Shown one piece after another: positions 8,001 through 22,966 of a stretch of 23,808 bases of DNA. The translations under genes were made by a program, and so were the position numbers. The notes under the pieces are model-generated. The model did no database searches. It worked only from the letters and a program-made list of their open reading frames with translations, and was not told where the DNA came from. Position 1 is the first letter of the stretch; each line of letters begins with the position of its first letter. The stretch covers positions 1-23,808 of the forward strand of contig JACSDG010000107.1 in the NCBI GenBank assembly GCA_015660855.1, read 5' to 3'. This DNA is from Magnetococcales bacterium (GTDB lineage Bacteria; Pseudomonadota; Magnetococcia; Magnetococcales; UBA8363).

Positions 8001-8623
8001 ACCGGTTCTTCATAGCCGGGAGGAAACAGATCGATGATGCCACCACGCGCGGCGAATTCACCCGGTTCTTCAATCTGGGCGGAGGATCGGTAGCCGGAGG
8101 CGATTAAAAATTGTTTGAAGGCGGGAAGATCAATCTGATCCGATTCCCGGATGGCAAATCCATGTTGCGCCAAGAGATGCCGGGGCATGAGTCTTTGCAT
8201 CAGGGCCATGGGGGTCGTAATGATGATGGCTTGTTGGTATCCCGCATTATTTTCGGGGCGAACCACGCCAAATCCAAGCATTTGGGTCAGACGATACAGG
8301 GTGGCAATGCGTTCACCGACGATGGGACCATAGGGTGACAAAGGTTCAAACGGCAATATTTCCCACGCCGGAAAAGGGAGAATGGCGACGGGACGGTGTC
8401 GATCCCCCTGAAACAACAACAACTCTCGATAGATAGCCTCGGCCCGTGTGGTTTTTCCGGTGACGATGACCAGGGGGCTTGTGCGGGTCGCCGCCCACTC
8501 TTTGACAAACAAACTCAGCGTCGCCCCCGGCAAATCTTTCAGCACACCGAAAGGGTGACCAGGTGTTTTGGGCAGGGGAGCCAACAGTTTGGAAAACAGG
8601 GAAGCGAACGGGCTTGGATCCAT
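5042..8623 (-). CDS. mfd: Transcription-repair coupling factor Mfd
   Basis: 1193-aa ORF. It has an SF2 helicase core with Walker A 'GDVGFGKTEVALRAAF' and motif II 'LLIVDEEQRFGVSHKE'. The UvrB-homology N-terminus, RNA-polymerase-interacting region, TRG motif region and C-terminal D7 domain follow in the expected order. The length is typical for Mfd. Confidence 0.95.
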   Translation of the reverse strand: MDPSPFASLFSKLLAPLPKTPGHPFGVLKDLPGATLSLFVKEWAATRTSPLVIVTGKTTRAEAIYRELLLFQGDRHRPVAILPFPAWEILPFEPLSPYGPIVGERIATLYRLTQMLGFGVVRPENNAGYQQAIIITTPMALMQRLMPRHLLAQHGFAIRESDQIDLPAFKQFLIASGYRSSAQIEEPGEFAARGGIIDLFPPGYEEPVRVELFGDQVETIRHFDIQTQRSTQRNSKVETLPMSEVLLTEETIRCFRTFYRETFGGKAASDEIYKVVSTGGKFQGMERFLPLFYDTTDLLVDYLPEGSQILLDADVEPAGVAFEEKVNNQRELLLKEEDASHLRLLPVHRFYITAQQLFASLAHFQVLQIKDNPDEPGCSLGFDRVPDFFDPAGEDVLSGHSVVERVVNFIQTQQKQQHRIVISTRSMGQRDRVAELLADHGHKTESAASWQDALLVSSKRIQLVLGDLASGFVHAGLRLAVFNEDAVLGTRARRKHTDPQYLDRILATFRNLKEGSFVVHADHGIGCFGGLHTLAVGGIQNDFLLLTYAGSDKLYVPVENLDRVSKYAGSDEVILDKLGGTKWKKTRQKVQKKLLEMAAELVEVQAKRETAKGIRFSSPHAVDHEFATAFPYDETPDQAQAIEAVLSDMASLRPMDRLICGDVGFGKTEVALRAAFRCVMDGKQVAVLTPTTILAQQHYETFSRRFSPYPVNVAMMSRFRTAKQMDELAEKIGEGKADIVIGTHRLLQKDIAFKDLGLLIVDEEQRFGVSHKERIKAMRANVDILTLTATPIPRTLHMAMSGIRDISIIATPPTNRLAIRTFVTEYNSARIREAILREIYRGGQVFYVFNKVQEIERMAIRIAELVPEAKIGIAHGQMPVGRLERIMVAFYRQEFNLLLCTTIIENGVDIPSANTIIIHRADHFGLAQLHQLRGRVGRSRHRAYAYLLTPPIQAQSADARKRLEAIEALGELGSGFMLASHDMEIRGVGNVLGEEQSGHIKEIGFELYNQMLKEAVEAYGAGTMADRGGSPQEEEIVPIINLNLSTNIPDTYITDMNLRLTMYKRVAELKTPDETAEMKVEFTDRFGSLPDSVENLLKVVAIKRRCIKLKVLKLEAGPKGAVLTFHSQPNIQPAVLIDMIRQGGGSVVFNQEKNLLTFRERYWEDPLLRLQHLERMLDFLGGKKSGVAPTKIL

Positions 8624-8877: not shown

Positions 8878-9138
8878 ATGTCGCAAACTCAATGGTCCCT
8901 GCAAGATGCCAAAAATCGCTTCAGCCGTGTCGTTAAAGCCGCGCAGCAAGGTTACCCACAGACGGTTACCAAGCGTGGCATCCCTGCTGTCGTCGTTATC
9001 GCCACCGAAGAATACGAACGCCTGCAATGTCTCGAAAAAAGGCATCTTCCTTCGTTTATCGACCACCTCCTGGCGATACCGAAGGATGATGAGAGTTTTG
9101 AAAGCTCGATCATTCAACCTCGAAATTTAATTTTGTGA
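8878..9138 (+). CDS. Type II toxin-antitoxin system Phd/YefM-family antitoxin, apparently orphan
   Basis: 86-aa protein 'MSQTQWSLQDAKNRFSRVVKAAQQGYPQTVTKRGIPAVVVIATEEYERLQ' matches the Phd/YefM (VapB-type) antitoxin N-domain pattern (W-LQ-AK--FS-vv--A--G-PQ-vT--G-PaVVV----EYERL). A GGAGG SD lies 8 nt upstream (8865-8869). A possible -35 TTGACA is at 8805-8810. No PIN or ParE/RelE toxin ORF follows. Confidence 0.75.
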   Translation: MSQTQWSLQDAKNRFSRVVKAAQQGYPQTVTKRGIPAVVVIATEEYERLQCLEKRHLPSFIDHLLAIPKDDESFESSIIQPRNLIL

Positions 9139-10259
9139 GCCAGCGGATCCATCGCCAGATCATCGTTGTCGGCGGGGGACCGGGTGGATCCATGACGGCA
9201 TGGAAGCTGGCTTTGGCCGGATGTGAAGTCCTGCTCATCGAAGCCAAAACGTTTCCCCGCTCCAAACCCTGTGCCGGCTGGATCACCTGTGCTGCCATGC
9301 AGGCCATGGCGTTTGACGCAACCACCTATCCCCATCTTTTGGTTCCCATCACCCGTGTCGCCATTGGTCTTCACGATGGTTTGCACGTCACCCACTGGCC
9401 CAACCCGGTGAGCTACGGCATTTTGCGGCGGGAGCTGGATGATTTTCTCCTGCAACGGGCCAGGGCGGCGGGGGCGGAAATCTGGCTGGGACGGCGGGTG
9501 GATCGGGTTGAACTCGGACAGGATGATGCCCTCGTCGTTGTGGGCGCAACCCAGGTCCGTGGAAAATGGGTTGTGGGTGCCGGTGGTGCAAGCTGCCCGG
9601 TCGCACGCGCCGTGGGGGGGAAATCATTTTGGCAACACCGCACCATGGTCGCATCACAAACGAGCGAAACCCCCATAGGTATCCGCCAACTGGAAAATTC
9701 CGGGCTGGGGACCGGTCTGCCGGTGCTGTTTCCCGAACCGGAAGCAGATGGATATGCCTGGTATTTTACCAAGGGGGATCATCTAAACATTGGGGTGGGG
9801 GCGTTGGGTGGCGGACCTGCCATTCCCATGCGCCGGCAACGTTTCCTGGAACGTCTGCAACGCGCAGGCACCCTGGACCCCTCCTGGAAGCTGGCCCCGT
9901 TCATCGGCCATTCTTATGCCCTCTGGCGCGGATTGCGGCAACCGTTGGCGGGTCGCAACCATCTATTGGTGGGCGATGCCGCCGGCCTGGCACGGGATTT
10001 CAGTGGTGAAGGAATTGGACCCGCCGTCCGCAGTGGTTCCCTGGCGGCCAATTTTATCCTTTCCCAACCATCGGGCGATAGCGAAGCCAACGACCATACC
10101 CGACAATTGGCACGCCTCCAGGGCCATGGTTTGATCACAAAAATGGGGGGAATCCTGGAAAAACTGCCCCAATCCTTCCGCCGCACCCTGGTTGAAAGTC
10201 TGTGCCGATCCCCCTGGTTGCGGCGACGGTGGGTGTTGGAAAAAGCGTTCCTGGGGTAG
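9135..10259 (+). CDS. FAD-dependent oxidoreductase, geranylgeranyl reductase family
   Basis: 374-aa ORF. It has an N-terminal dinucleotide-binding fold 'IIVVGGGPGGSMTAW' and the 'KPCAGWI' motif. The geranylgeranyl-reductase-family signature 'HLLVGDAAGLARDFSGEGIGPAVRSGSLAA' is present. The GTG start at 9135 overlaps the antitoxin stop (GTGA). No earlier in-frame start can include the Rossmann motif. Confidence 0.75.
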   Translation: MSQRIHRQIIVVGGGPGGSMTAWKLALAGCEVLLIEAKTFPRSKPCAGWITCAAMQAMAFDATTYPHLLVPITRVAIGLHDGLHVTHWPNPVSYGILRRELDDFLLQRARAAGAEIWLGRRVDRVELGQDDALVVVGATQVRGKWVVGAGGASCPVARAVGGKSFWQHRTMVASQTSETPIGIRQLENSGLGTGLPVLFPEPEADGYAWYFTKGDHLNIGVGALGGGPAIPMRRQRFLERLQRAGTLDPSWKLAPFIGHSYALWRGLRQPLAGRNHLLVGDAAGLARDFSGEGIGPAVRSGSLAANFILSQPSGDSEANDHTRQLARLQGHGLITKMGGILEKLPQSFRRTLVESLCRSPWLRRRWVLEKAFLG

Positions 10260-10264
10260 GTCGG

Positions 10265-11419
10265 TCAGGCAAGATTTTCCAGGGCACTTTGGGTACGCCG
10301 AATCTGATGGAGCATTATTTTTTCACACCCGTCCCAACTTGTCTGCTCCCCCAGGCTAAAGCGTAGCCATTCGTTACGGCGCAACGAAAAATTGATGCCA
10401 CCATTGCCAAACATGCCGTGCATATGGGGATACCGTTGCAACCAGGCATGCACCCCCGGTCCCACATCGATGGCGCGACCCACGGGATAGGCCAAAAAAT
10501 GGATCAATGGAATTTTTTGTTGTTCCCAATAGTGGCTATTGTCTTCGATGGCCATGGCCACTTGGTCAGGGGTTTGATGCGAGAGGAGACGATGGGCGCG
10601 GGTATGGTTGCCGATTTCCCAGCCTGCGCGATGCAACCGCTCCACCCCATCCCGATCCAAGTGTACGTTAAGGTGGTTGGGATCTCCCAAGCATTCCCGG
10701 TAGGTTGCGTCGGTCACCTCCTCCATCACATCGGCGGCGTAATGGCCTTTCATCAGGCTTTGGAGTGCCGCCCCATCATCAGGCCAATCCTGTCCAGGCA
10801 ATTGCGCACGCAGGTTCGCCGCCAACCGCGCCGCGTATCCTTTAAGCACCAACACCCCCGCCAGAACTCGATACAAACTTTGGCGTTTCCGGGCAAACTC
10901 GGAACAGACAAAAACAGTCGGATGCAACCCCAATTGTTGAATAATGGGACCCGCCTGGGTCAGATTGTTGGTGAATCCATCATCAAAGGTCACCGCGAAA
11001 ACAGATTTCTCAAGACTCCCGTTGGCCCACAAACCTGGCAGTTCACTCAAGGCAACGGCGGGCATATGGGACAGCATAAATTTCAGTTGTTCTTGCAACT
11101 GTAAAATGGTCGTCTCCCCTTTGCGATAACCCTGTTCCCACAATTCACGCTGGTTGGGATCGACGACGCTGTGATAGAGCAGAATATAAACTCCCTTGGG
11201 AATTTTTTTTCTCACCCGTTTGACAAATATCCCAGGAAGGCACTTTCCGAGGCTTCGGGTAAGGAAAGATTGCGGCGGGGCGGGGGGAACCGGGGTTTTT
11301 TCAATGGTTTTTTGCAGATTCGGCCAATGCTCGTTCGGTGGGACGGTAGGGTGATTCATGGGGGAGGCCGGTTTTTTTTGGTCAGAGTAGACAAAATCCA
11401 GGGGATACGCCGCAACCAT
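10265..11419 (-). CDS. Polysaccharide deacetylase (NodB homology domain, carbohydrate esterase family 4)
   Basis: NodB motifs are present: 'TFDDGFTNN' (catalytic Asp and metal ligand) and 'GWEIGNHTRAH' (His ligands). The ORF-track start is 11419. An alternative ATG at 11359 (MNHPTV...) would overlap the upstream GT stop as ATGA. Neither start has a clear SD. Confidence 0.8.
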   Translation of the reverse strand: MVAAYPLDFVYSDQKKPASPMNHPTVPPNEHWPNLQKTIEKTPVPPAPPQSFLTRSLGKCLPGIFVKRVRKKIPKGVYILLYHSVVDPNQRELWEQGYRKGETTILQLQEQLKFMLSHMPAVALSELPGLWANGSLEKSVFAVTFDDGFTNNLTQAGPIIQQLGLHPTVFVCSEFARKRQSLYRVLAGVLVLKGYAARLAANLRAQLPGQDWPDDGAALQSLMKGHYAADVMEEVTDATYRECLGDPNHLNVHLDRDGVERLHRAGWEIGNHTRAHRLLSHQTPDQVAMAIEDNSHYWEQQKIPLIHFLAYPVGRAIDVGPGVHAWLQRYPHMHGMFGNGGINFSLRRNEWLRFSLGEQTSWDGCEKIMLHQIRRTQSALENLA

Positions 11420-12408
11420 CGACGCTGGGCCAAAATCCGGGGTCTCTGGGCCAGCAACTGTTGAAAAAGGTCATGGTAGTTCTGGCACATGCGTTGGGCG
11501 GTATGCGGAAAACCGACCATGCGTGCGGCCCACTGCGGGAAAGTCTGGAGCATTTCTTCCAGTTTGGCCTCCAAGGTTTCGGGGGTATATTCAATCCCAT
11601 AACCATTGCAGTATTCGACCATGGAGCCGCTGTCAAGGTAGAGCAATGGCAAACCGCACAACCCCGCCTCCAGGTTGTGGTTCCCCCCCGATTCGTGCCT
11701 GGCGGCGGTAATATAGGCATCGTGTCGGCGCAACTCCTGGGCGAGGGCCTCCCCCGAGAGCGGTTCGATAAGGCGCGCCCGTTCAAAATGAAAATCCTTA
11801 GGCACGCGACCAATATAGGTAAATTCAATCCGCTCTGCCCATTGGGGATCGGCGAGCAATCGATCCAATTGTTGGTAAACGTCAAAGCCTTTGTTCCAAT
11901 GGTTGCTCCAATGATGGGTCACCAGTTTTAATAGTTTTTCCTGTTTTTTTTGGGGGGGTTCTCCAGGTTGCCAAAGGTGATGATCGCCGCCGTTGAGGAT
12001 GACACTCCAGGGACGCAAACGATTAAAACCGGATTCCAGGTAACGATCTTTGACCCATTGACTGACGAAGACGGTGTGGTCGGCGATTTGGTTGGCGTGA
12101 ATGCGATAATGATTGAATGTTTTGGCAAGGTCGTCACGGGCTTCGCTGGTGTTGTTGATGCGGTGGACAACGATGGCGTTGGGATTTTTCAGCAGGAGAT
12201 AGAGGAGGATATCACGATGGTCATAGGCGGAGATACGCAACCGGGCATCGGGTTCGGCCAACAGAATGATATCCAAATCCCGGTCTTCCAGGTCATGGCT
12301 CACCCGTTCCCCCTGGTCTCCCAGGTATTGCGTCAAAGCCTTGCCAAACTGATTTCCCCCACCCCAAGCCCCCGATTGGAGGCTCATGCCGATGCTTATT
12401 TTTGTCAA
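11356..12408 (-). CDS. Glycosyltransferase, GT-B fold (GT4-like)
   Basis: 350-aa ORF. The N-terminus 'ISIGMSLQSGAWGGGNQFGKALTQYL' resembles the GT4 N-domain. The C-terminal block 'ESGGNHNLEAGLCGLPLLYLDSG' resembles the GT-B E-x7-E/donor-binding region. The TTG start at 12408 is preceded by a GAGGA SD and overlaps the upstream stop as TTGA. A C7A8 tract (plus 11944-11958) encodes PPQKK. Confidence 0.65.
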   Translation of the reverse strand: MTKISIGMSLQSGAWGGGNQFGKALTQYLGDQGERVSHDLEDRDLDIILLAEPDARLRISAYDHRDILLYLLLKNPNAIVVHRINNTSEARDDLAKTFNHYRIHANQIADHTVFVSQWVKDRYLESGFNRLRPWSVILNGGDHHLWQPGEPPQKKQEKLLKLVTHHWSNHWNKGFDVYQQLDRLLADPQWAERIEFTYIGRVPKDFHFERARLIEPLSGEALAQELRRHDAYITAARHESGGNHNLEAGLCGLPLLYLDSGSMVEYCNGYGIEYTPETLEAKLEEMLQTFPQWAARMVGFPHTAQRMCQNYHDLFQQLLAQRPRILAQRRWLRRIPWILSTLTKKNRPPP

Positions 12409-13361
12409 TGTTTTTCCTCACTGTTGCATGCGGCGTTGAGATTCCGCCTGATCTCATCGGAAGTGCTTTGAGAATCCAGTTCATCGACAATTTCATAAAT
12501 TCTTTCCCAATAGGGGGGCAATTCTCCCAACACCCGATCCCGTTGCAAAGGTTTATCGGAAATAGCCAAGTGCAGCGTATAGGGAAGGGTAAACATGGGA
12601 GGAAACAGTTCCTTCCTGGGCACCCCCTCCCGGGAATCGTCATCCAAAGGCAAGCAATAACTCTTAACCACATCCACCCCCCGTTGCAACGCCTCCCTGG
12701 TCTCTGGTTGATCATGAAAATGCGAGGGAACGGGGGAAAAAATAATCATTGCCTTGGAGGAATACAAACCTAGCCGTATGTTCTCATCACGGAGACTTTT
12801 CAATGTTTCATCAAGACCGGCAATGTTTTGGTGATTCAGGCCGGAGACCAGAACGATCCGGTCTGCCATATATCCCATGGTTAAATCCACCAAATCCAGA
12901 TAACCGGGACAACAATCGATGAGCACATAATCAACTCCACGATCAGCCCCTTCCGGCTTGAACGCCGCCAAATCTTCAATAAATTTTTGCGCATAAAAAC
13001 GCAACGCCCATTCTTCCAGGCTTTCGTTTGCACGTCCTTCCTTGGGGGGAACTTTGTGGGTTCTCGATTCACTGAATTTTTGAATCTGAAACTGGTTGGT
13101 TTTACCTGCCGGCAATACAAGAAAACGCCCGTTGGATCCCCATATTCCTTTGGGATCATCGGACTTCCTGTCGCGTAAAAGTTTGCTCGGGGGGTAAAAA
13201 TTAAAAGTGCCTTTTTCAAGATCCCGACTAGAATAGAATTCGGCAAGCAAATCACCGACGCCCAATTCATTCAATTTTTCATCGGGATGTTTACGCAGGT
13301 TGGGGGAATAGCTGATGCCGGGGGCATGGATATCCATATCCACCAAGTGCCGTGCGCCCAA
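12405..13361 (-). CDS. ParA/MinD-fold P-loop NTPase-like protein with degenerate Walker A (putative pseudo-ATPase)
   Basis: A strong Walker B / ParA signature 'RGVDYVLIDCCPGYLDLVDLTMGYMADRIVLVS' is present, and the 'FLVLPAG' segment corresponds to the ParA switch region. The position where the deviant Walker A 'KGGVGKT' should sit (residues ~8-20) reads 'DMDIHAPGISYSPNL', with no lysines and no GK[ST]. No Walker A is found in other frames upstream. The start is uncertain: the TTG at 13361 lies only 2 nt after a GGGAGGAG SD. Confidence 0.5.
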   Translation of the reverse strand: MGARHLVDMDIHAPGISYSPNLRKHPDEKLNELGVGDLLAEFYSSRDLEKGTFNFYPPSKLLRDRKSDDPKGIWGSNGRFLVLPAGKTNQFQIQKFSESRTHKVPPKEGRANESLEEWALRFYAQKFIEDLAAFKPEGADRGVDYVLIDCCPGYLDLVDLTMGYMADRIVLVSGLNHQNIAGLDETLKSLRDENIRLGLYSSKAMIIFSPVPSHFHDQPETREALQRGVDVVKSYCLPLDDDSREGVPRKELFPPMFTLPYTLHLAISDKPLQRDRVLGELPPYWERIYEIVDELDSQSTSDEIRRNLNAACNSEEKH

Positions 13362-13415
13362 CTCCTCCCTTGAATGAATAGAAGGTGTAAACTTTCATAT
13401 AATGACCTATTGCCT

Positions 13416-14105
13416 TCATGCCGCGCTTTTAAAGTCAACCACAACCACATTTGGGAACGGACTTTTAAACACATCCTGAATTCCCCCCATTTCTTTTGAA
13501 GAAGAATTCTGTCCCGCTGCCGCCGCAGCAATGCGTTTCTCTCTACCAGCATCGGGAAAATAATCGAGTGCCCGTGGCCCGAAGGTTAAATATTTTTCAC
13601 GTCCCACTTTGTGCCGGGAGATCAGTTCCCAATCTTCCAACTGATTCAAAATGCGCGTCAGATTGGCCGGCTTCAGGGCCAACTTTTCACCCAGATCTTT
13701 TTGTAAAACATATTTTGCCTCACCGATCTGTTCCATGATCTTGCACACATGCTCCCGGTTGAGGATTTCCTCCGGAATTTCCATGTGCCGCGCCACCACT
13801 CTGTCGTGCAGAACATTCTGAAATGCCAACCAACGGGTAGCATAGGCTTCGCTCATGCCGTTGAGTATTTTTTTCCGGGAAGCGTCCGCAGCCACACTTT
13901 CCAGGTGCAGAGACAATGTTTCCATCTCTTTAACATGGGCATGATCCCACAGGGCAATATACAGCTTCCAACGGTAGGCAAAATCCAATTTCTGGGCAAT
14001 CGATTCATCCCATCGCTCAATTTTCTTAACAGCATCTAAAATGCCGTCAAGATCGGATATTTCCGAAAGCCAAAGCGGGTCTATCGTGTCAAGGTCAATC
14101 GCCAT
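13416..14105 (-). CDS. Hypothetical protein with central winged-helix (MarR-like) DNA-binding motif
   Basis: 229-aa ORF. The segment 'YVLQKDLGEKLALKPANLTRILNQLEDWELISRHKVGREKYLTF' has the helix-turn-helix plus wing pattern of MarR/PadR-type wHTH. The flanking domains have no motif I recognise. It sits directly upstream of the ParA-like gene in the same frame, but the two are separated by several stop codons. Confidence 0.45.
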   Translation of the reverse strand: MAIDLDTIDPLWLSEISDLDGILDAVKKIERWDESIAQKLDFAYRWKLYIALWDHAHVKEMETLSLHLESVAADASRKKILNGMSEAYATRWLAFQNVLHDRVVARHMEIPEEILNREHVCKIMEQIGEAKYVLQKDLGEKLALKPANLTRILNQLEDWELISRHKVGREKYLTFGPRALDYFPDAGREKRIAAAAAGQNSSSKEMGGIQDVFKSPFPNVVVVDFKSAA

Positions 14106-14429
14106 GAAGAAAACCTTTGTAAATCATTTTACTGAAGACGCGCACACCATCATTCACAACACTTTACACCATCTTCGGTTTTCCTGCACACGCCTTCGTT
14201 ATTGCGCATATAAAAACCTCAATTAATAAAAAAACTCACAATAGATTTCCAAGCGTAGCAAAGGCATTGATCATTTTCAACACGAATCGCTCACTCACGC
14301 AAAAAAAACGGCATTAACCTTGCATTAATCATGAAGAAAATCCACGCAGACTGTTGGCCCCCATCCTGCCACCCTCGCGCCAAATTAAAAAATGAACAAC
14401 CTTCAACCCGTTCTTCCAAGGTGCCTGTC

Positions 14430-15194
14430 ATGATGGTCGATTACATCCCATGCGCTGACTCCAGTACAGTAAAAAAATGTGCCAGAAAAATTCCTTGGCT
14501 CCCCTTCCTTCTGGTTCTCGCCTGCGTTTGCCAGCCGGTCCTCGCCGAAGAAGGCATCTTCAACGATGAACGAAATTCCGGTTTCAACAATCGCTGGGTC
14601 GAACCCAATAATACCAGTGCCCATGAAATCGGTTTGTCCAAAGGTGCCGCAAAACCATCGTTCGTCCCCGCCCACCACGTCATCCATTGGCGTTGGGATA
14701 AGACTGTCTTTTCCTATTCCAACTATTCATGGGGTATGCAATGGCGCGGTTGCAACGAACCCATCGATTTCCTGTCCATCCTCTATATGGACCGGCCACC
14801 CGCAGAAATGACTTTGGAATATTATAAAAATTTTACCAGACGCGCCGAACAGGTGGCCCTCAAATTTGAACTCATCCTGGCCGATGACGATTTCTCTGGC
14901 AAAGCCATCAACGTCCGGTTTGATATGGTCGGCGACATCCCCTCCGAAGATGTCAATATTCTTGAACACCTCTACTCCCACGACCATCCCCACCCCCCCA
15001 TCACCATCTACCCCAAAGCCCCCAATCTGGGATTGGAAAAAAAACGTCCCTATGAAGTCATCATCAACTTCATCGACTTCGCATTCCTGGAGCAAGGATT
15101 GGATCTGACAAAAATGAAACAAATTGTGTTCAGCATACCCAAAGATGGACCGAAAAAAGGAGATATCTTTCTCTACAATATTCGTATCGAATAA
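14430..15194 (+). CDS. Secreted hypothetical protein (Sec signal peptide)
   Basis: The ORF track gives 14331..15194. The preferred start is the ATG at 14430 (MMVDY...), with an AAGGTG SD 6 nt upstream. The signal peptide is 'KKCARKIPWLPFLLVLACVCQPVLA|EEG'. The mature protein is hydrophilic with an 'HDHPHPP' patch and a C-terminus 'GDIFLYNIRIE'. I recognise no family. Confidence 0.5.
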   Translation: MMVDYIPCADSSTVKKCARKIPWLPFLLVLACVCQPVLAEEGIFNDERNSGFNNRWVEPNNTSAHEIGLSKGAAKPSFVPAHHVIHWRWDKTVFSYSNYSWGMQWRGCNEPIDFLSILYMDRPPAEMTLEYYKNFTRRAEQVALKFELILADDDFSGKAINVRFDMVGDIPSEDVNILEHLYSHDHPHPPITIYPKAPNLGLEKKRPYEVIINFIDFAFLEQGLDLTKMKQIVFSIPKDGPKKGDIFLYNIRIE

Positions 15195-15201
15195 TCCCCC
15201 C

Positions 15202-16218
15202 TCATGGAGGTGGATTCGTGGAATCTTTCAGTGCCCGTTTAAAATCACGATGGTAGATGAGGTAAAAAACAAAACCTGGCAGCAAAGCCATGGAGGAAAC
15301 AATGCGAAAAACCAAAAAAATGGTGCCGTAGCCCGTCACTGAAGGAATGGTCTCCAGCAGGCGGGCAATCTGATCAAAACTACCCTCGCCCACCCCAAGC
15401 CCTCCCGGCGTCACCGGCAAGGCATTGGCCGCCGTTGACCAAAGCGTCACCAATACGTAATCCGCCCCGCTGAGCGTCCCTATACCACTGGAAAAGACGA
15501 TCACAATGATACAGGCAATGGTCAGCAAATGATTCAATACTGCCAACAAAAGGACCAAAACCATCCGTTTAGGGGTCTTCTTGTAGAGATCAATCGCATG
15601 GACCAACCGGTCCAAAATCCAGCGCAACTGTGTCGAAGGGACGCTAGAAAGCAGCCACTCCCCCCATGAAGTGTGACTCCAGCGAAGAAAAACATACGCC
15701 GCCAACGGCAGTCCAAAAGTGACTCCCGTGGCAAATATCCACAATATTTTCAGAGGCACATGCTGATTGGCGGCGTCCAAATAGAAAAAAGAAAAAACAA
15801 AACAAAGCAAAAATTGTGAATAAACCCCAATCATCCGGTCGAAAAAAATGGACCACGCCGCCGCAGTGCGTTGATCCGGAGTTTCCTGGACCACATAGGC
15901 GGTACGCAGGGCGTCGGAAGTGACAAATCCGCCGGGGAGAAAAATGGAGAAAAATACCGTAATAAACAGAATCTGTACCGATTTGAACGCCGAAACCTGA
16001 ATCCCTTGGCACGAAAGCAACAAAAACCAACGCCAACCCGACAATACCATCGCCACCAAAACGATAACCACAATCTGCAATACCACCATGGGGTGCGTCA
16101 CCAGTTGCCGCAACATGACAAAATCAATCACGTCACCAAAATAGAGTGCCGCCAACAATCCCGCCGCAATAACCAGCTTAACGCCGGGCGTCATGATCCG
16201 CTCCATCGACAAATTCAC
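15202..16218 (-). CDS. Flippase-like domain membrane protein (UPF0104 / lysylphosphatidylglycerol-synthase TM-region family)
   Basis: The protein is polytopic and hydrophobic, with about 8 predicted TM helices. The family signature 'LPVTPGGLGVGEG' is present. The GTG start at 16218 has an AGGAGA SD 5 nt upstream. Confidence 0.7.
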   Translation of the reverse strand: MNLSMERIMTPGVKLVIAAGLLAALYFGDVIDFVMLRQLVTHPMVVLQIVVIVLVAMVLSGWRWFLLLSCQGIQVSAFKSVQILFITVFFSIFLPGGFVTSDALRTAYVVQETPDQRTAAAWSIFFDRMIGVYSQFLLCFVFSFFYLDAANQHVPLKILWIFATGVTFGLPLAAYVFLRWSHTSWGEWLLSSVPSTQLRWILDRLVHAIDLYKKTPKRMVLVLLLAVLNHLLTIACIIVIVFSSGIGTLSGADYVLVTLWSTAANALPVTPGGLGVGEGSFDQIARLLETIPSVTGYGTIFLVFRIVSSMALLPGFVFYLIYHRDFKRALKDSTNPPP

Positions 16219-16298
16219 AGTCTCTCCTGTCTTATGTAACCTTGTAGAAAATCATCCGGGTAACTATTCAGTCCGCCCCCTCCTTTTTCAAGGTTCAA

Positions 16299-17459
16299 TT
16301 ATTCAATGCCGCTTTGATTTGGCTCTCCGAAAAACCACCAGAGTCCACCGATAAGCGCACCGACGGCCACGACCGTCAGGGTGATCTTGACCCAACTGTA
16401 GGGTCGTTCTCCCTGAACTTCGCCGCTGCGACCGTTGATTAAAAATGGATAACCGCGATTGCCAAAACGATAGGTACTGAGCCAAATGGGCAACAGAATG
16501 TGTTTGAAGGTGACATCGCTGTATCGGGTGTTCAGATGGTCAATCCTTTGCTCATCGCCGCCAATGTCGCGTTGAACCAATCTTTTGATGGTTTCGGCCA
16601 TCCGTTCCGTGGCCTGACCGAATCCTTCTTGCAATCCCAACCGATAACTCTGGGCGCAAAATCCACTGACATAGTCGGAATCGTAGGCCACAAGATTTTC
16701 CAAATCCCAGGGTTCCAGATGGTTGGCCATGTCCTTGGGCAAAAGATCACTCGCCATGACCAGGACATCGTCAAACCCATGGGCCACATGACCGCTGGTG
16801 GAAGTCCATCGGGTGCGGGTAACGGTGCGGGTTTTTTGGACGGTTTGTCCCCCTTCGGTGGTGGTATAGGTCTCCTGTACATGGTAATGAACCCCCCTTT
16901 GCCCCCGATAATCACTGTGGGTTTGGGTATCGAAGGTCCAATAGGGGACGTACAAACCATTCAAGGGGGTATCACTGCGTGCCGCCATTTTAAGTTTGTT
17001 GGGGGCAAACCAGCGGCTTGAAACCCATTTTACAAAATGATCACGGGCTTGTTTTTTATCCACCTTGAAAGGTAGCAGGCTCGAAGGTTTGATCTGACGC
17101 TTGGACGTTTCCTGAAGATCCATGGCCATGCCGCAAAAAGGACAGGCCAAGGCAATGGTTCCCCGTTCAGGCTTCACCGTGGCACCACAACCGGCGCACT
17201 GGACCACGACAACGTCCTCTACGCGACCGTCCGCTTCGGCTTTTTGCAGCCAAGCGTCAAAATCAAGCTCTTTGATTTCTCCCCTGCTGAGTGGCACCTC
17301 CTGGGCATGGCCACAATGTTCGCAAACCAGGGAAGTGGTTCCGGGGACGAAGCCCAAGTGGGCACCGCATTGGGTACAAGGGAATTGCTGCGGCCCAGGG
17401 TTGGTATGACCCGGTACGGTGGGAATTTTTTTTTCCTGCGGGTGCGACTTTGGGTTCAT
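16299..17459 (-). CDS. Double zinc-ribbon protein with C-terminal transmembrane anchor (B. subtilis YdjG-like)
   Basis: There are two CxxC...CxxC ribbons: 'CTQCGAHL...CEHCGHA' and 'CAGCGATV...CPFCGMA'. A conserved-looking middle domain includes 'LYVPYWTFDTQ', and the C-terminal TM helix is 'ITLTVVAVGALIGGLWWFF'. The preferred start is the ATG at 17459 (MNPKS), with an AGGAAG SD, 13 nt after the SPFH gene stop. The ORF track extends to 17501. An A9 run (17426-17434) lies in codons ~9-12. Confidence 0.6.
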   Translation of the reverse strand: MNPKSHPQEKKIPTVPGHTNPGPQQFPCTQCGAHLGFVPGTTSLVCEHCGHAQEVPLSRGEIKELDFDAWLQKAEADGRVEDVVVVQCAGCGATVKPERGTIALACPFCGMAMDLQETSKRQIKPSSLLPFKVDKKQARDHFVKWVSSRWFAPNKLKMAARSDTPLNGLYVPYWTFDTQTHSDYRGQRGVHYHVQETYTTTEGGQTVQKTRTVTRTRWTSTSGHVAHGFDDVLVMASDLLPKDMANHLEPWDLENLVAYDSDYVSGFCAQSYRLGLQEGFGQATERMAETIKRLVQRDIGGDEQRIDHLNTRYSDVTFKHILLPIWLSTYRFGNRGYPFLINGRSGEVQGERPYSWVKITLTVVAVGALIGGLWWFFGEPNQSGIE

Positions 17460-17472
17460 GGAGACTTCCTTA

Positions 17473-18570
17473 TCAAGGAACGGGCAAAGGTGGCGGTCCA
17501 CCCGCAGCAGGTTGCGTCACCAGAGTTCCCCATTCGGGGAGTTGCGCAAGTGCAACCCATTGGGGCATGCCGGGTTTCCAGGCAAGGGTTTGGCCCGAAA
17601 TCTGACCGGAGGCAAGCCATTGCCGCACCCCCGCCAGATCATAAGGCCCTTGCTGTTGCCCCTGGATGACCAGATGATACTGGGATGCGGTCGGAAGTGG
17701 GGGCGGCGCAAGTGGAGCTTGTATAGCGGGAGCGGCTGCCTGTTGCCCCATGGCCATTCCTATCCCCATCCCCATCATCCCACCGGCCTGACCTGGGTTT
17801 TCCGCCGCTTTTTCCATGGCCACGGCGGTCTGGAAACGATTGAACGCCCCCAAGTCGCCAATCATCCCCATGCTGGTTCGTTTATCCAACATTTTTTCCA
17901 CTTCTTCGGGGAGGGAAATATTTTCCACCAGGGGTTTCGCAAGTTCCAGGCCGTACTCCTGAAACTCGGGACCGATGCGTTTTTGCAGCATCACCCCAAG
18001 CTCGTCGTATTGGGTGGAAAGATCCAACAGAGGAATTCGGCTTTCCGCCAGGGCGTCGGCAAATCGGGAGACAAACAGGGATCTTAACTGTTCGGTGATT
18101 TCATCCAGAGTGAAACGACCGTCGGTACCGACCACCGCCGCCACCAGTTTTCCAGGGTCTGCCACCCGTATGGAAAAACTGCCAAAACCACGCAGACGGA
18201 CCGGACCAAATTCAGGGTCGCGCAAAATGATCGGGTTCTTGGTACCCCATTTAAGATCGGTAAAGGTGCGCAGACTGACAAAATAGACTTCCGCTTTGAA
18301 CGGGCTGGAAAAACCGTATTTCCATCCCTTGAGGGTGGTAAGAACGGGAATGTTGCGGGTTTCCAAAGTGTAGAGGCCGGGATTGAAACCGTCGGCGAGT
18401 TGGCCTTCGTTGACAAAAAGGGCATGCTGCCCCGCACGCACCACCAGTTGGGCACCATATTTGATTTCGTTGTCGTAGCGTTCAAAACGATAGACGAGGG
18501 TGTCGGCAGAATCATCGGTCCATTCGATGATATCGATGAATTCCCCGGCGATTTTTGAAAAAAAACCCAT
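17473..18570 (-). CDS. SPFH/band-7 domain protein of the COG4260 'virion core protein-like' type (YdjI-like) with C-terminal GYF-like (DUF4339) domain
   Basis: The start 'MGFFSKIAGEFIDIIEWTDDS' is the characteristic N-terminus of this SPFH subfamily, and the SPFH core follows. A Gly/Met-rich linker leads into 'YHLVIQGQQQGPYDLAGVRQWLASGQISGQTLAWKPGMPQWVALAQLPE' (GYF-like) and a Pro-rich tail. A GGAGA SD lies 7 nt upstream of the ATG at 18570. The ORF-track N-terminal extension to 18816 has no support. An A8/T8 run occupies codons 3-5. Confidence 0.75.
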   Translation of the reverse strand: MGFFSKIAGEFIDIIEWTDDSADTLVYRFERYDNEIKYGAQLVVRAGQHALFVNEGQLADGFNPGLYTLETRNIPVLTTLKGWKYGFSSPFKAEVYFVSLRTFTDLKWGTKNPIILRDPEFGPVRLRGFGSFSIRVADPGKLVAAVVGTDGRFTLDEITEQLRSLFVSRFADALAESRIPLLDLSTQYDELGVMLQKRIGPEFQEYGLELAKPLVENISLPEEVEKMLDKRTSMGMIGDLGAFNRFQTAVAMEKAAENPGQAGGMMGMGIGMAMGQQAAAPAIQAPLAPPPLPTASQYHLVIQGQQQGPYDLAGVRQWLASGQISGQTLAWKPGMPQWVALAQLPEWGTLVTQPAAGGPPPLPVP

Positions 18571-19059
18571 AATTTTTTCTCCCCGTTCCCCGTCGGTTGA
18601 TGATGCCATCCCTTCTTGCAAGGACGGCATGGCTTGGCATCCTGTTGGCGTCAATCTATCATTTTCAACGGCTTCACTGCACCTTAAAAGCAGGGGCCGC
18701 TCCACCATTCTACCCGTTTTATTTGACAATTCCAGCCGGCGGCGACCCACCGTCGGTGCCCTGCCTTCATCCATATGGATTTCTACGCCATGGAGAAAAA
18801 AGTTAAAACTATACATTATTAATTACCAATGAATGCAAAAAACGTACTTGGATTCATTCATAATTTAAATTATTATTTGCAAGTCATTCTTGGTTTTATT
18901 ATTATTAAAATTGGATGGCAAGTTGTTGCCTGGGGGACTCTTTGACTTTTCTTTTTTTAAAGGGTATAGTCCCCACCCTGGCATTTCGTGGTGGATGCGA
19001 AAGGAGCTGTATGATATTATTGTGGATCAACAGGGAGATGCAACAAAGGCTGTCGTTTC

Positions 19060-19283
19060 TTCCTCATGCGGTCCGGGCCATGAAAGAAATTACCGCAAAG
19101 ATCAGCATCATCGAAGAAATTGCCCGACAGACCAACCTGTTAGCTTTGAATGCGGCCATTGAAGCCGCGCGCGCCGGCGAGAGTCATGCGTCTGCCGGGG
19201 CATTGCCTTCGCCGTCTTCCAAATCCGGTGGGGCTGACCTGGATATGGGGTCGTCTGCGGTGGATGAATTTGAATCTTTCTGA
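19060..19283 (+). pseudogene. Remnant of a methyl-accepting chemotaxis protein signalling domain (frameshifted and truncated)
   Basis: '[34 protein letters not shown]' is the highly conserved MCP hairpin-tip core. The expected following 'GRGFAVVA' appears shifted into another frame ('RGIAFAV'), then the reading frame collapses. No HAMP, sensor or TM region lies upstream. The AT-rich tract 18800-18960 flanks it. Confidence 0.55.
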
Positions 19284-19317: not shown

Positions 19318-19752
19318 ATGAGAAGACCCAAGCGCACATTCAACCCAAAAAGAGAGGTTCGTCCTGTACCGGGTACAGACACCGAGCGGGAAAATCTTGT
19401 GAGTTTGGCATCCAAGGTTGTCTATGGTGGTAATCCCGAGCACAAACGCAACCCCGGTGACTTTGGCTTAACTCCTCCGAGTAGTCCAAGACAGGGAAAG
19501 ACTTTGTGTGATTCGGTCGGTATTTTTACTCAGCGAGAGTCTACCAAGTTGCTTCGGGAAGGGGTGCGACGCGGGGTAATCAGTCGCCGTGAAAAAAATG
19601 GATGGCCTCAAAATGTATGGGCTGTTGACGCCAACGGTATGCCCATGGAAGCTCAATTGGAAAACGCTGAACGGGGGATTTATCATGGTTACCCAATGCC
19701 AGAAACCGATATTTTCCGAGAAAAGATTCTAGAACGCTGGGGGCAACATTGA
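19318..19752 (+). CDS. Hypothetical small basic protein (144 aa), first gene of an uncharacterised two-gene cassette
   Basis: The N-terminus 'MRRPKRTFNPKREVRP' is strongly basic. It is followed by 'KVVYGGNPEHKRNPGDFG' and the C-terminal 'ERGIYHGYPMPETD'. I recognise no family. The RBS is weak. The stop overlaps the downstream start (TTGA). Confidence 0.45.
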   Translation: MRRPKRTFNPKREVRPVPGTDTERENLVSLASKVVYGGNPEHKRNPGDFGLTPPSSPRQGKTLCDSVGIFTQRESTKLLREGVRRGVISRREKNGWPQNVWAVDANGMPMEAQLENAERGIYHGYPMPETDIFREKILERWGQH

Positions 19753-21110
19753 GTGAACTCTTCGTCATCACTCCCCTGAAGTGGACACCCGCTGTCTACG
19801 GACCGGAAGAGGTACGGCAAACGTCAGCAATATTACAGTTCACCGTCAATAACCGTCTGGTAACCAGGGTCGATAACGATTGGACAAGAGTAGTCGATAA
19901 AACAGTATGTCTTTCTGCATACCCTCTAGCTCTTTGGCTTGTTTCTTCTTGGTGGCGTTTGCATTGGGAACCGGTACCAGCTGGGATACCCAATATTGAA
20001 TGGCGTATAGCCCACGAAATGGGGAGCGCAGGCCATGGGTTTCTCTGGCCACCTGTGCGGTTCGAGTCTGATGGGGAGATGGTCACAGTCCATTGTACGC
20101 CATCCTCGGCTGAGTCCAATGAACCCATTCGTTACCTGAATCGGCTGCACGAGTCAATACCATCCGCTGAATTTACCAAAGGGATTGTGGATTTTATCCA
20201 AATTGTCATCGACAGGCTGGATTCCGTTGGTATTCAGGATACGGAGTTGCACACACTGTGGCGAGAAGTGGGCGGCGAACGGACAAACCCAAAGACAGCT
20301 TCTTACCGCAAAATGGAGGCCCTGCTCGGGTTTGACCCCGACGAAGGGCCGGAAACGATTGTTGATACACTCCTGAATTTGTCTATGGCGGTTGGGGATG
20401 CGGCAGTAGCAGAGATTGCTGCCAGTACGTCTTCCCCCCTGCACTTGAATCAGGTGTTGGAGAGTGCCAGATCTGCGGGTCTCCAAGGAAACCTCTCTGG
20501 TATTTATGCCCTGATGCCGCAAGCAACCTGGTGTCATTACACAACGGCAACCCCCTGGGACCGGGGCCGAGACTTGGCCCGAACAGTACGTCAACACTTG
20601 AGCTTATATTCTGCGCCCGTCTCCAACCGCCTCCTGAGTGACATTTTAGGGCTAGAGGAACGGGGTCTGGCCGATGGTGATGCGCCTATGGCCGGGACTG
20701 ATTTAAGCTTGGCAATCAAATCGGAAGAGGGGGATCAGGTCAATCTGCTTTTTCGCCGTAAGCGTCCAAACGGGCGACGTTTCGAGGTAGCCCGCTGGAT
20801 GGCTGATGTTCTGCTATCCTCAGCCCAAGACCGTTGGCTACCCGCCACTAACGCAAAAACGGCCCGACAAAAAGTTCAGCGCGCATTTGCCGCTGAGTTC
20901 CTGTCCCCAATTGATGCCCTGAAAACTTACCTGGACAACGATCTGGCCGACGAAGATCGCATTGAGGAGGCTGGAGGTTATTTTGGGGTTTCCCCGTTAA
21001 CCGTCCGGAGCCAATTGGTCAACCATGGTTTGGTTCCGTGGAACGTCATAGGCAACGGTTCTACTCCAAGGGATTCTTGGTTGGAAGAGTGGGAAAAGGT
21101 AAAAGCCTGA
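19749..21110 (+). CDS. Hypothetical protein with C-terminal ImmA/IrrE (M78 peptidase, COG2856)-like domain lacking the HEXXH zinc site
   Basis: 453-aa ORF. The first ~340 aa are unrecognised. The last ~110 aa 'RRFEVARWMADVLLSS-(20)-QKVQRAFAAEFLSPIDALKTYL...GGYFGVSPLTVRSQLVNHGLV' align in spacing and residues with the ImmA/IrrE core 'RFTLAHELGHLLLH-(~25)-EANxFAAELLMP...FGVS.....RL..LGLI'. HELGH is replaced by RWMAD and the downstream Glu ligand is absent. The TTG start is uncertain. Confidence 0.55.
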   Translation: MSELFVITPLKWTPAVYGPEEVRQTSAILQFTVNNRLVTRVDNDWTRVVDKTVCLSAYPLALWLVSSWWRLHWEPVPAGIPNIEWRIAHEMGSAGHGFLWPPVRFESDGEMVTVHCTPSSAESNEPIRYLNRLHESIPSAEFTKGIVDFIQIVIDRLDSVGIQDTELHTLWREVGGERTNPKTASYRKMEALLGFDPDEGPETIVDTLLNLSMAVGDAAVAEIAASTSSPLHLNQVLESARSAGLQGNLSGIYALMPQATWCHYTTATPWDRGRDLARTVRQHLSLYSAPVSNRLLSDILGLEERGLADGDAPMAGTDLSLAIKSEEGDQVNLLFRRKRPNGRRFEVARWMADVLLSSAQDRWLPATNAKTARQKVQRAFAAEFLSPIDALKTYLDNDLADEDRIEEAGGYFGVSPLTVRSQLVNHGLVPWNVIGNGSTPRDSWLEEWEKVKA

Positions 21111-21124
21111 TGTGAGTCCTCCCC

Positions 21125-22966
21125 ATGTGCGGTATCGCCGCCCTGTTTGCCTATCATCCCGATGCCCCCGCCAACGATGTCCAGGAACTGTTGCGCATGC
21201 GCGAAGCCATGGCCCTGCGTGGTCCGGATGCCGCCGGGATCTGGAACAACGAAGACGACAGAGTGACCCTGGGACATCGCCGGTTGGCCATCATCGACCC
21301 GGAGCAACGTGCCAATCAGCCCATGATCAGCCAGGATGGCCGCCATGTGGTGGTCTTTAACGGCGAAATCTATAACCATCCAGCGTTGCGAGAATCCCTG
21401 GGCCGCCTCGGCCATTCCTTTCAAACCCGTTCCGATACCGAAGTGCTGCTCCATCTCTATGCCGAATATGGCGTCGACATGCTGACCCATCTTCGAGGCA
21501 TGTTTGCCTTTGTTCTGTGGGACCGGCTTGCCAAATCCCTGTTGGTTGCCAGAGACCCCTATGGCATCAAACCTCTCTACTACGCCGATGACGGCTCGAC
21601 CATTCGTATCGCCTCCCAGGTCGGGGCACTGTTGGCGGGAGGTCGGGTTTCGCGTCAGCCGGATCCGGCAGGATGGGTCGGGTTTTTCCTGTTTGGCAGC
21701 GTCCAGGAACCCTTTACCCAGTACCAATCCATTCGCGCCTTGCCAGCCGGTTGCTTCCTGCGTGTCACCTCCCAAGGAACAGGCGCGATAACCGAATATT
21801 TTTCCCTGGCCGCCACATTTTTACATGCTGCCAACCATCCCAATCCATGGCAGCCGGAAAAGGTGGCGGAAAATGTACGCGCCATCCTCCGGGATTCGGT
21901 GCAAGCACACCTGACTGCGGATGTCCCCGTCGGAGCCTTTCTTTCCTCCGGGGTGGATTCGGGGGCACTCGTCGGTCTCGCCCAGGAAACCAAAAAAGAA
22001 AAAATCCATACCGTCACCCTCTCCTTTGAAGCCTTCCACCAAGATCAACGCGATGAAGCCCCCCTGGCCCAGCGCGTCGCCGAGCATTACCAAACCCAAC
22101 ATGTCACCCGCATGGTGACACAGCCCGAATTTCACCGCGAAATCCCCGCCATCCTCGCCGCCATGGACCAACCCACCATCGATGGCATCAATACCTGGTT
22201 CGTTAGCAAGGCGGCCAGGGAATTGGGCCTGAAAGTGGCCCTCAGCGGTCTGGGTGGCGATGAACTTTTTGGCGGCTATCCCTCATTCTCAGACATTCCC
22301 CGCTGGCTGAAAATCGCCCGCCTTGCCCGGCATATCCCTTACTCCGGACCGATGTTTCGCCATCTCTCCCTGCCTTTGTTTCAATCCTTGCCCGGCCTGG
22401 GGGCCAAAGGGGCCAGCTTTTTCATGTATGGGGCTTCATTCCCTGGAGCCTATCTGTTGCGTCGGGGAGTGTTCATGCCTTGGGAATTGCCTGCCTTGTT
22501 GGGTGAGGACATGGCAACGGAAGGATTGCAACGCCTGGATGTGCTCGCCCATATCGAAAAATCCATGCCCCCGGCCCCATCGGGAACCTTCGCCCGTATC
22601 GCCTCCATGGAAGCAAGTCTCTACATGCGTAATCAACTCCTCCGCGATACCGATTGGGCCTCTATGGCCCACTCCCTGGAGGTGCGTACCCCCCTGGTGG
22701 ACCGTGTCGTCCTGCAATCCCTGGCACCCTTGTTGATCCAATCGCAGACGGCCCGGGGAAAACAATGGCTCGCCCAGGCCCCAAAGCCTCCCTTGCCTCC
22801 CGAAGTGGTGTATCGTAAAAAAACAGGGTTTACCATACCGGTCCAGGCTTGGCTGTTAAACCATCCCCAACTGGATGGCTGGCGGCATGTCCCCATGCTG
22901 GCTCACCACGGCTGCCATGGATCCCGGCGGTTGGCTTACGCCGTTTATCACCACAGATCACAGTGA
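21125..22966 (+). CDS. Asparagine synthase (glutamine-hydrolysing) family amidotransferase
   Basis: 613-aa ORF. The N-terminal 'MCGIAALF' carries the catalytic Cys2 of the Ntn glutaminase domain. The synthetase domain has a PP-loop 'FLSSGVDSGALVGLA'. The overall length and order are typical of AsnB-family proteins. Such paralogues are common in exopolysaccharide loci. Confidence 0.9.
   Translation: MCGIAALFAYHPDAPANDVQELLRMREAMALRGPDAAGIWNNEDDRVTLGHRRLAIIDPEQRANQPMISQDGRHVVVFNGEIYNHPALRESLGRLGHSFQTRSDTEVLLHLYAEYGVDMLTHLRGMFAFVLWDRLAKSLLVARDPYGIKPLYYADDGSTIRIASQVGALLAGGRVSRQPDPAGWVGFFLFGSVQEPFTQYQSIRALPAGCFLRVTSQGTGAITEYFSLAATFLHAANHPNPWQPEKVAENVRAILRDSVQAHLTADVPVGAFLSSGVDSGALVGLAQETKKEKIHTVTLSFEAFHQDQRDEAPLAQRVAEHYQTQHVTRMVTQPEFHREIPAILAAMDQPTIDGINTWFVSKAARELGLKVALSGLGGDELFGGYPSFSDIPRWLKIARLARHIPYSGPMFRHLSLPLFQSLPGLGAKGASFFMYGASFPGAYLLRRGVFMPWELPALLGEDMATEGLQRLDVLAHIEKSMPPAPSGTFARIASMEASLYMRNQLLRDTDWASMAHSLEVRTPLVDRVVLQSLAPLLIQSQTARGKQWLAQAPKPPLPPEVVYRKKTGFTIPVQAWLLNHPQLDGWRHVPMLAHHGCHGSRRLAYAVYHHRSQ

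Follow-up and report, generated by a model that had tools for sequence, protein, structure and literature searches.

A translationally coupled two-gene cassette from Magnetococcales as a candidate toxin-first module with a pseudo-M78 partner protein

Several described systems provide the background for the locus considered here. In NetFlax, antitoxins carrying an ImmA domain constitute a hub, D25, that includes RosmerTA and is associated with swappable toxins, and the toxin-first gene order is common (58%; PMC10440598). Similarly, COG2856(-Xre) proteins are repeatedly encoded together with RelE or PIN toxins in one operon (Makarova, Wolf and Koonin 2009, PMC2701414), and Ntox50 is marked by an HxVP motif and a two-histidine layout, namely K446-H447 together with H528 in HxVP (PMC12700104; Zhang et al. 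2012, PMC3482391). The element in question is a two-gene cassette at positions 19318-21110 of contig JACSDG010000107.1, which derives from a Magnetococcales metagenome-assembled genome (MAG); the 23,808-nucleotide stretch of this contig that was analysed as a whole is referred to as the window. The small protein of the cassette corresponds to NCBI HW380_2949, and the cassette itself comprises the following features:

19318..19752, plus strand: small gene, ATG start, 144 amino acids (aa), net charge +7; predicted to encode a BECR/RelE-like RNase toxin that has an N-terminal extension of 70 residues.
19749..21110, plus strand: large gene, TTG start, 453 aa, net charge -15, 16 Trp; predicted antitoxin or immunity protein.
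19749..19752, plus strand: TTGA stop/start overlap, with TTG at 19749-19751 (start of the large gene) and TGA at 19750-19752 (stop of the small gene); translational coupling.

The pair is read here as a toxin-first toxin-antitoxin (TA) or TA-type defence module, in which a BECR-like RNase toxin would be combined with a pseudo-protease antitoxin, and a probability of roughly 55% is assigned to this function. The toxin role of the small protein is suggested by a predicted topology of one alpha-helix and four beta-strands, by invariant His, Lys, Tyr, His and Cys residues, by a basic charge (+7) set against an acidic partner (-15), and by the stronger constraint under which the small protein appears to be held.

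The two plus-strand open reading frames (ORFs) of 144 and 453 aa had been reported as overlapping in TTGA, and both the ORF list and the junction DNA (...caacaTTGAgtg..., i.e. caT TGA gtg) bear this out. A TTG start such as that of the large gene in the window is rare in the family, where ATG or GTG is used in 78 of 79 loci. In a gene-neighbourhood conservation analysis across many phyla, of the kind suggested in the initial annotation, a large-gene homolog is located directly downstream of the small gene and on the same strand in 79 of the 80 fetched loci, that is, in 79/79 testable loci, as the 80th ends 161 nt past the small gene. The junction overlaps in 74 of these 79 loci, by 4 nt (ATGA/GTGA) in 40 and by 8 nt in 20 (60/79 combined); therefore, translational coupling is a trait of the family rather than a product of chance. 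The pairwise identities of the two proteins are also correlated (r 0.60, a value reached in 0/999 permutations), with the small protein being the more constrained partner at a mean identity of 57% versus 37% for the large one.

Clustering of all flanking ORFs revealed no third conserved gene; clusters found in 56, 25 and 22 loci were considered for this role and rejected, because they appear to be antisense shadow ORFs within the pair. In some lineages two further small unannotated genes are located just upstream of the pair (L088 6322-7004; L002 6744-7858); these genes, which in L088 overlap one another as well as the start of the small gene, are not conserved across loci.

The distribution of the small gene was surveyed in one genome per species, with 185,579 species being scanned, and about 390 of these species' genomes carry it, scattered in a patchy manner over many phyla, including Proteobacteria, Acidobacteria, Chloroflexi, Planctomycetes, Verrucomicrobia, Cyanobacteria and others. 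None of the genes flanking the pair in the window recurs in other loci, even in other Magnetococcales. The initial annotation had regarded the cassette as an acquired accessory module, a view that is upheld by flanks that are unrelated between genomes and that are in some cases mobile genetic elements, TA clusters or defence islands. For instance, the cassette is inserted between FitA, Phd/PIN and MazE genes in an integrative and conjugative element (ICE) of Achromobacter (TraI, TraG, TraU), and another copy stands near ParE/Phd; in an island of Acidobacteria with integrases, a serine recombinase and ParB/RepB, it adjoins AbiEi/AbiEii. On a Massilia plasmid it directly follows DptFGH, beside genes for a patatin-like phospholipase and a PD-(D/E)XK nuclease, and on an Agrobacterium plasmid it is placed between two restriction endonucleases and an integrase. 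A gene for a patatin-like phospholipase adjoins the pair in two unrelated settings, being directly upstream in L086/L087 (5553-6860), while on the Massilia plasmid (L091 9631-11502) it follows the pair at a distance of about 0.9 kb, on the opposite strand.

More distant copies of the pair were reached by a tblastn search of plasmids with the large protein, which returned homologs of about 25% identity in Agrobacterium and Tistrella:

L097 2987-4640: distant sister pair on Agrobacterium plasmid pAt2.
L096 2939-4697: distant sister pair on Tistrella plasmid pTM2.

In Agrobacterium, the 134-aa gene upstream of the large gene was assigned by hhalign to the small family, as a divergent member (probability 96%, E 2e-9), while in Tistrella a gene of the small family overlaps the start of the large gene. 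Residues Y36, EHK, C64, P97, W101 and Y122 of the small protein are kept in this clade, and HExxH is absent from both of its large proteins, including the one in Tistrella that is labelled in RefSeq as an ImmA/IrrE family metallo-endopeptidase despite this absence. As the pair is kept in the distant clade, the pairing is therefore ancient.

Neither protein can be assigned to a described family by sequence. Scans of both window proteins against Pfam, NCBIfam, PADLOC and PHROGs gave no family match, so the small protein is as unplaceable as had been stated, and neither partner falls into a well-characterised housekeeping family. PADLOC-DB v2, its Rosmer models included, likewise gave no match to either protein at E up to 1. 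The only NCBIfam line for the window proteins, an IS5 transposase, was discarded as noise (E 0.074; 12.6 bits against a cut-off of 110), and sequence-profile searches of the PDB with both family alignments yielded chance matches only (uL24, E 0.054; a designed protein, E 0.84). Among 30 members of the small family, a Pfam scan at E up to 10 produced only noise (Herpes_US8A in 4 members) and no match to the RelE/ParE, HigB and Ntox families, PF15542 included. Similarly, the Pfam Imm families gave no match to 34 members of the large family at E up to 10, and no helix-turn-helix (HTH) was detected by Pfam scans of the large window protein and its relatives.

The N-terminus of the small protein had been described as extremely basic, and indeed its 16 residues MRRPKRTFNPKREVRP contain 7 K/R and 1 D/E. 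In the AlphaFold2 (AF2) model (pLDDT 82.7), a 70-residue N-terminal extension with a single helix (21-31) and a low-confidence stretch (40-70, pLDDT 58-66) precedes a core of pLDDT 89-96, which consists of a helix (72-85), four strands (88-97, broken; 99-103; 109-116; 121-126) and a C-terminal helix. The order of one helix and four strands in this predicted core is the defining BECR topology. The predicted fold is thus alpha/beta and not an HTH, in agreement with the initial annotation, and its best matches are of toxin type, which hints weakly at the same function; a Foldseek search of the model against all PDB chains returned nothing significant.

Conservation within the small family is concentrated on a limited set of residues. 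In an alignment of members that are 28-54% identical (A3), Y36, H42, K43, C64, P97, W101, Y122, H123 and G124 are invariant, and D65 and E111 are nearly so (E111 in at least 90%); the two Gly/His/Tyr patches that had been singled out as conserved-looking are the most conserved parts of the family. Across the loci, H42 is kept in 80/81 and E111 in 81/81. The candidate active-site positions are encoded as follows:

19441..19446, plus strand: codons of the invariant H42-K43 dyad (in NPEHK), which lies in the poorly structured N-terminal extension and may be catalytic.
19648..19650, plus strand: codon of the nearly invariant E111, located on the third strand; may serve as a general base.
19681..19695, plus strand: codons of Y122-H123-G124-Y125-P126 (YHGYP), at the beginning of the last strand; the Tyr and His are candidate catalytic residues, and the motif resembles Ntox50 HxVP.

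The small protein has 2181 homolog clusters, every one of them free of Pfam domains, and its identity to them is 55-70% across Magnetococcales, Acidobacteria, Verrucomicrobia, Armatimonadetes, Achromobacter and Syntrophobacteraceae. A deep hidden Markov model search gathered 785 representatives of the family; in the best 150 of these 785, practically every protein stands alone with a length of about 140 aa, and no polymorphic-toxin fusion was found among them. When the ten longest members were checked for extra Pfam domains, 9/10 had none. The remaining case is P0280 (222 aa), in which a cNMP-binding domain (PF00027, E 3e-12) directly precedes small-family residues 36-125, and this fusion is either genuine or a gene-calling artefact.

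The large protein, for which at least 707 homolog clusters exist, is modelled by AF2 with pLDDT 89.1 and pTM 0.88 as having an N-terminal part rich in beta-structure and Trp, followed by a helical middle part and a C-terminal part of alpha/beta type, which correspond to the following segments and motifs:

19749..20162, plus strand: residues 1-138, beta-rich and Trp-rich domain (SSWWRLRWE helix); proposed CdiI/Imm23-like immunity fold.
20163..20552, plus strand: residues 139-268, all-helical middle region without a specific fold match.
20553..21050, plus strand: residues about 269-434, pseudo-protease domain of M78 (ImmA/IrrE) fold.
20778..20807, plus strand: R344-F345-E346-V-A-R349-W350-M-A-D353, remnant of the M78 motif 'RFxxAHExxH'.
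20868..20909, plus strand: Q374-P387 (QKVQRAFAAEFLSP), remnant of the M78 motif 'ExxANxFAxxLLMP', with the third-ligand Glu replaced by the invariant Q374.

The C-terminal domain has a genuine M78 fold and is a catalytically dead pseudo-protease, as had been supposed from the letters alone. Its best structural matches are CapP and IrrE, with PrpR among the top ones. For a profile comparison, M78 segments of CapP, IrrE and 9vzy were taken from the PDB with a bait consensus and aligned as a reference, to which the large family was matched by hhalign over residues 339-429 (E 4.7e-5). In this mapping, the first zinc His corresponds to R349, the catalytic Glu to W350 (W, F or L in the family), the second zinc His to the variable D353, and the third-ligand Glu to Q374. 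It had also been considered that F345-E346-x-x-R349 could be the equivalent of HExxH; this was dropped, as the profile-profile alignment anchors the RF of 'RFxxAHExxH' on R344-F345. The motifs RFExxR and Q[KRQ]xQRAFAxE[FL]LxP are present in 34/34 members of the large family, and HExxH is found nowhere in any of the same 34. Because the ligand positions are replaced and the family lacks HExxH, the domain is regarded as a pseudo-protease with a remodelled pocket, whose residues R344, E346, R349, R373, Q374, Q377, R378 and E383 are invariant. The Pfam M78 model (PF06114) did not match the window protein at E up to 1, and it matched relatives weakly and under the gathering threshold (best E 0.001). 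Genuine M78 proteins were also sought in the fetched loci by a regex search, which returned none.

The N-terminal part of the large protein has one relative of a different architecture. On Acidithiobacillus caldus plasmid pLAtc3 (L098 3103-4196; also NC_010600.1 56293-56682), a 231-aa protein is homologous only to residues 1-177 of the large protein, with a very hydrophobic protein of 89 aa encoded before it and an N-6 DNA methylase after it; here the immunity-like domain may be combined with a different, membrane-type partner.

In the mechanism proposed for the toxin-antitoxin reading, the two genes would together make up a self-contained toxin-first module that moves horizontally. The basic protein of 144 aa would be the effector, a metal-independent endoribonuclease with a BECR-type core of one helix and a four-stranded sheet, to which the conserved N-terminal extension would bring the H42-K43 dyad, while Y122-H123 on the last strand, and possibly E111, would complete the active site. 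The 453-aa acidic protein, translated by coupling from its overlapping start, would bind and neutralise the toxin, presumably with its putatively CdiI/Imm23-like N-terminal domain as the likely toxin-binding part. The most likely role of the Arg/Gln-rich M78 pocket would be binding or sensing, directed at a ligand, at a segment of the toxin in peptide form, or at a phage or stress trigger.

Damaged copies of the pair bear on the assignment of these roles. In a Syntrophobacteraceae MAG (L008 6001-7723), a frameshift near residue 370 interrupts the large gene, and H42Q is present in the small one; this is the sole H42 substitution in 81 small genes, and the locus is one of two with a frameshifted large gene. 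In a Magnetococcales MAG (P0129, HQL64_07455), the first roughly 50 residues of the small protein, through NPGDFGL (columns 1-51 of alignment A2), are joined in frame to a full-length large protein by a natural fusion or deletion, so that the putative toxin core is gone and the partner is kept. The same MAG has a second copy of the large gene (P0131). These few cases of apparent decay would fit a toxin that cannot be kept without its partner.

Several observations weigh against a toxin-antitoxin function. In the distant clade, YKGWP replaces YHGYP, with H123 changed to Lys, and E111 is lost; the second His can therefore be a Lys, and the proposed catalytic set is not universal. At a further locus (L065), the large gene contains two frameshifts and the small gene is apparently intact; it may be guessed that these frameshifts are sequencing errors, as the contig name points to an assembly of long reads, in which indel errors are frequent. 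Conservation of the small protein at 52-70% across phyla is atypical of an arms-race toxin, some copies are located amid ordinary metabolic genes, and no DNA-binding domain was found in the large protein, unlike in classical type II antitoxins. The pair is moreover rare on plasmids (5/72,556 records), it gave 0 matches in 50,697 phage records, and only 1 locus was found among viral contigs (IMG/VR); carriage by phages is ruled out on the latter two counts.

Some of these points also speak for a different function, in which the small gene would encode an enzyme of housekeeping-like or stress-response character, such as one that processes RNA or modifies nucleotides, and the large gene its regulator or chaperone, so that the enzyme is gated by a ligand-sensing pseudo-M78 protein. 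Such a function would suit a small protein that is very strongly conserved across phyla, the several loci amid metabolic genes, the absence of the family from phage records and its near absence from viral contigs, the placing of PrpR, with its M78-like ligand-binding domain, among the top structural matches, and the failure of every PADLOC model to match. It is considered unlikely, since the distribution is patchy (about 390/185,579 species), the flanks are unrelated even inside Magnetococcales, and the pair recurs in ICEs, in integrase islands and beside restriction, Dpt and AbiE systems, while the N-terminal domain of the large protein appears immunity-like and the fold matches of the small protein, though weak, are toxin-type.

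A more specific variant of the toxin-antitoxin function, which we hold to be rather a long shot, assigns the former substrate cleft of an M78 protease, inactivated long ago and for good, the task of clamping a conserved catalytic loop of the toxin (YGGNPEHKRNPGDFGL, with H42-K43) as a pseudo-substrate and thereby keeping the RNase disassembled, until a phage or stress ligand or peptide competes for the cleft and frees the toxin. The pair would then be a new TA-type immune class, and the small protein a new stand-alone BECR lineage with a split active site.

The assignment of the two roles could also be reversed, with the small basic protein serving as an antitoxin or regulator that uses a disordered toxin-binding stretch, and the large protein acting as the toxin through its Trp-rich N-terminal domain or its M78 pocket. 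The small gene is indeed upstream, as is the antitoxin gene in most type II systems; residues 40-70 of its product are modelled at the low confidence (pLDDT 58-66) seen in many antitoxin binding segments, its basic N-terminus could bind DNA, and the large protein offers many invariant polar residues, including T25, T39, S56, S67, E74 and H89 in addition to R344/E346/R349/R373/Q374/Q377/R378. This polarity is nevertheless decidedly improbable: the small protein has a compact alpha/beta core with invariant His/Lys/Tyr/His, its best fold matches, though weak, are toxins and it is the more conserved partner, whereas the folds of the large protein are those of a putative immunity-type domain and a dead protease, and the damaged copies fit a small toxin, with H42Q accompanying a broken large gene in one and a truncated small gene fused to an intact large one in the other.

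A switch under protease control like that of ImmR/ImmA, DdrO/IrrE or CapH/CapP, with the small protein being cleaved by the large one on a signal, can be dismissed as hardly credible: the C-terminal M78 fold with CapP and IrrE as best matches and the label of ImmA/IrrE metallo-endopeptidase given by NCBI to one relative are set against the absence of HExxH in 34/34 members, the replacement of both His ligands, the catalytic Glu and the third-ligand Glu, and a small partner with neither an HTH nor a Pfam match. The analogies to these three systems, which the initial annotation had drawn, are mechanistically inapplicable because there is no active protease and no XRE substrate.

With the toxin-first module retained as the favoured interpretation, the immediate surroundings in the window can be described. 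The locus is not an assembly artefact, because an independent assembly in ENA (L093) reproduces the gene order of Band_7, a fragment of a methyl-accepting chemotaxis protein (MCP) gene, the 144-aa gene and the 453-aa gene, and it also calls the large gene at 453 aa. The best protein-database match to the large window protein is at 76% and none is at 100% identity, while the small protein was returned. The MCP gene remnant, the AT-rich tract and the amidotransferase that had been reported around the cassette are all present. In the remnant, a plus-strand ORF at 18915-19283, the match to the Pfam MCPsignal model is limited to model positions 17-66 of 172 and involves residues 41-90 of the 122-aa product; the frame diverges after AARAGE, and another frame resembles the usual GRGFAVVA continuation, which suggests a frameshift. 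The fragment is identical in L093 and absent from every other locus, being confined to the contigs of this organism. The GC content of 18800-18960 is 0.261 versus 0.526 for the contig, and this AT-rich tract is a divergent intergenic region upstream of the pair with promoter-like sites:

18876..18970, plus strand: promoter-like sites TTGACT-17-TATAGT and TTTGCA-18-TATTAT in the AT-rich tract; possibly the operon promoter, a weak assignment.

A scan for the promoter consensus gave 7 sites versus 2.3 expected, and no terminator was found between the promoter-like sites and position 21400. The MCP remnant and the AT-rich tract are local context and stand outside the cassette. Downstream, the ORF at 21125-22966 encodes an amidotransferase with Asn_synthase and GATase domains. 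The GC content at third codon positions is 0.43 in the small gene and 0.53 in the large gene, compared with 0.56-0.65 in the neighbouring genes. Further upstream, the genes of window positions 9135-18816 look to be of envelope or exopolysaccharide type and include those for an FAD oxidoreductase, a polysaccharide deacetylase, a MarR-like protein, LPG_synthase_TM, a zinc-ribbon protein and Band_7/GYF_2, whereas the ORFs at 11356-12408, 12405-13361 and 14331-15194 have no Pfam match. A long ORF of 1193 aa is located at 5042-8623.

The module is common, yet both of its genes are annotated as hypothetical proteins in every record inspected, save for the occasional and misleading ImmA/IrrE label. 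Its recognition would put these labels right and enlarge the TA and defence catalogues by a toxin family and an antitoxin architecture. The pseudo-M78 domain would furthermore provide a clean natural example of a pseudo-protease that is retained for binding rather than catalysis, and the strictly conserved pocket and the unusually constrained putative toxin are direct targets for mutagenesis, structure determination and phage challenge.

The comparison with known systems can be made for each half of the cassette. One of the top structural matches of the large protein, PrpR of Mycobacterium tuberculosis (PDB 6D2S/6CYJ), differs in being a transcription factor with an Xre HTH and no toxin partner. 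In the toxin-first members of the RelE superfamily, HigBA, MqsRA and BrnTA, the antitoxins are Xre or ribbon-helix-helix DNA binders of about 100-130 aa; no sequence similarity to them was found, and RelE-like toxins do not have the conserved 70-residue extension of the small protein. Partners of M78 type are not mentioned in the paper on RelE/ParE defence toxins.

Ntox50 (YxiD-CT/YxxD, PDB 9V8I) and Ntox19 share with the small protein an N-terminal His next to a Lys and a His on the C-terminal strand in an H-x-hydrophobic-P context. There is, however, no detectable sequence relationship to Ntox50 (PF15542 at E up to 10), the dyad is KH there and HK here, and Ntox50 is carried at the C-terminus of secreted LXG/MafB/Rhs toxins, whose immunity protein is small, whereas the window protein is a stand-alone cytoplasmic one with a 450-aa multidomain partner. 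The BECR-Tox2-like group (bioRxiv 10.64898/2026.08.28.747851), compared here by description only, likewise has a BECR core that follows a poorly structured extension with a conserved Lys/His motif, a second conserved His at the N-terminus of beta-4, and an enrichment in defence contexts; in most cases it forms the C-terminal domain either of a Menshen PIN protein or of a polymorphic toxin that is paired with a small immunity protein, and its dyad is again KH instead of HK. YxiD, Ntox50 and M78 are not mentioned in that preprint.

For the partner protein, the COG2856 operons provide a patchy and mobile parallel in which an M78-family protein is linked to a RNase toxin of RelE/BECR or PIN type. 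The COG2856 proteins are nevertheless only about 160 aa long and retain HExxH, an Xre HTH is usually fused to them or found next to them, and a three-component system with an active protease has been proposed for them, in contrast to the two components, dead protease and missing Xre of the window pair. RosmerTA (RmrT/RmrA) and the NetFlax D25 systems resemble the pair, in the interpretation favoured here, in having two genes, an antitoxin with an M78/ImmA domain, a swappable and often unrecognisable toxin, and links to defence islands and mobile genetic elements. The window protein departs from them in an M78 domain devoid of HExxH and the zinc ligands, in the lack of a detected N-terminal HTH and in the extra, putatively CdiI-like and helical domains before the M78 domain, and the pair departs from RosmerTA in a distinct putative toxin family and in matching no Rosmer model of PADLOC at E up to 1. 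Because no RmrA model matches, HExxH is missing, no HTH is detectable and the small protein belongs to no described family, the pair is placed outside the RosmerTA and COG2856 families as these are defined, but akin to the RosmerTA or COG2856-associated kind.

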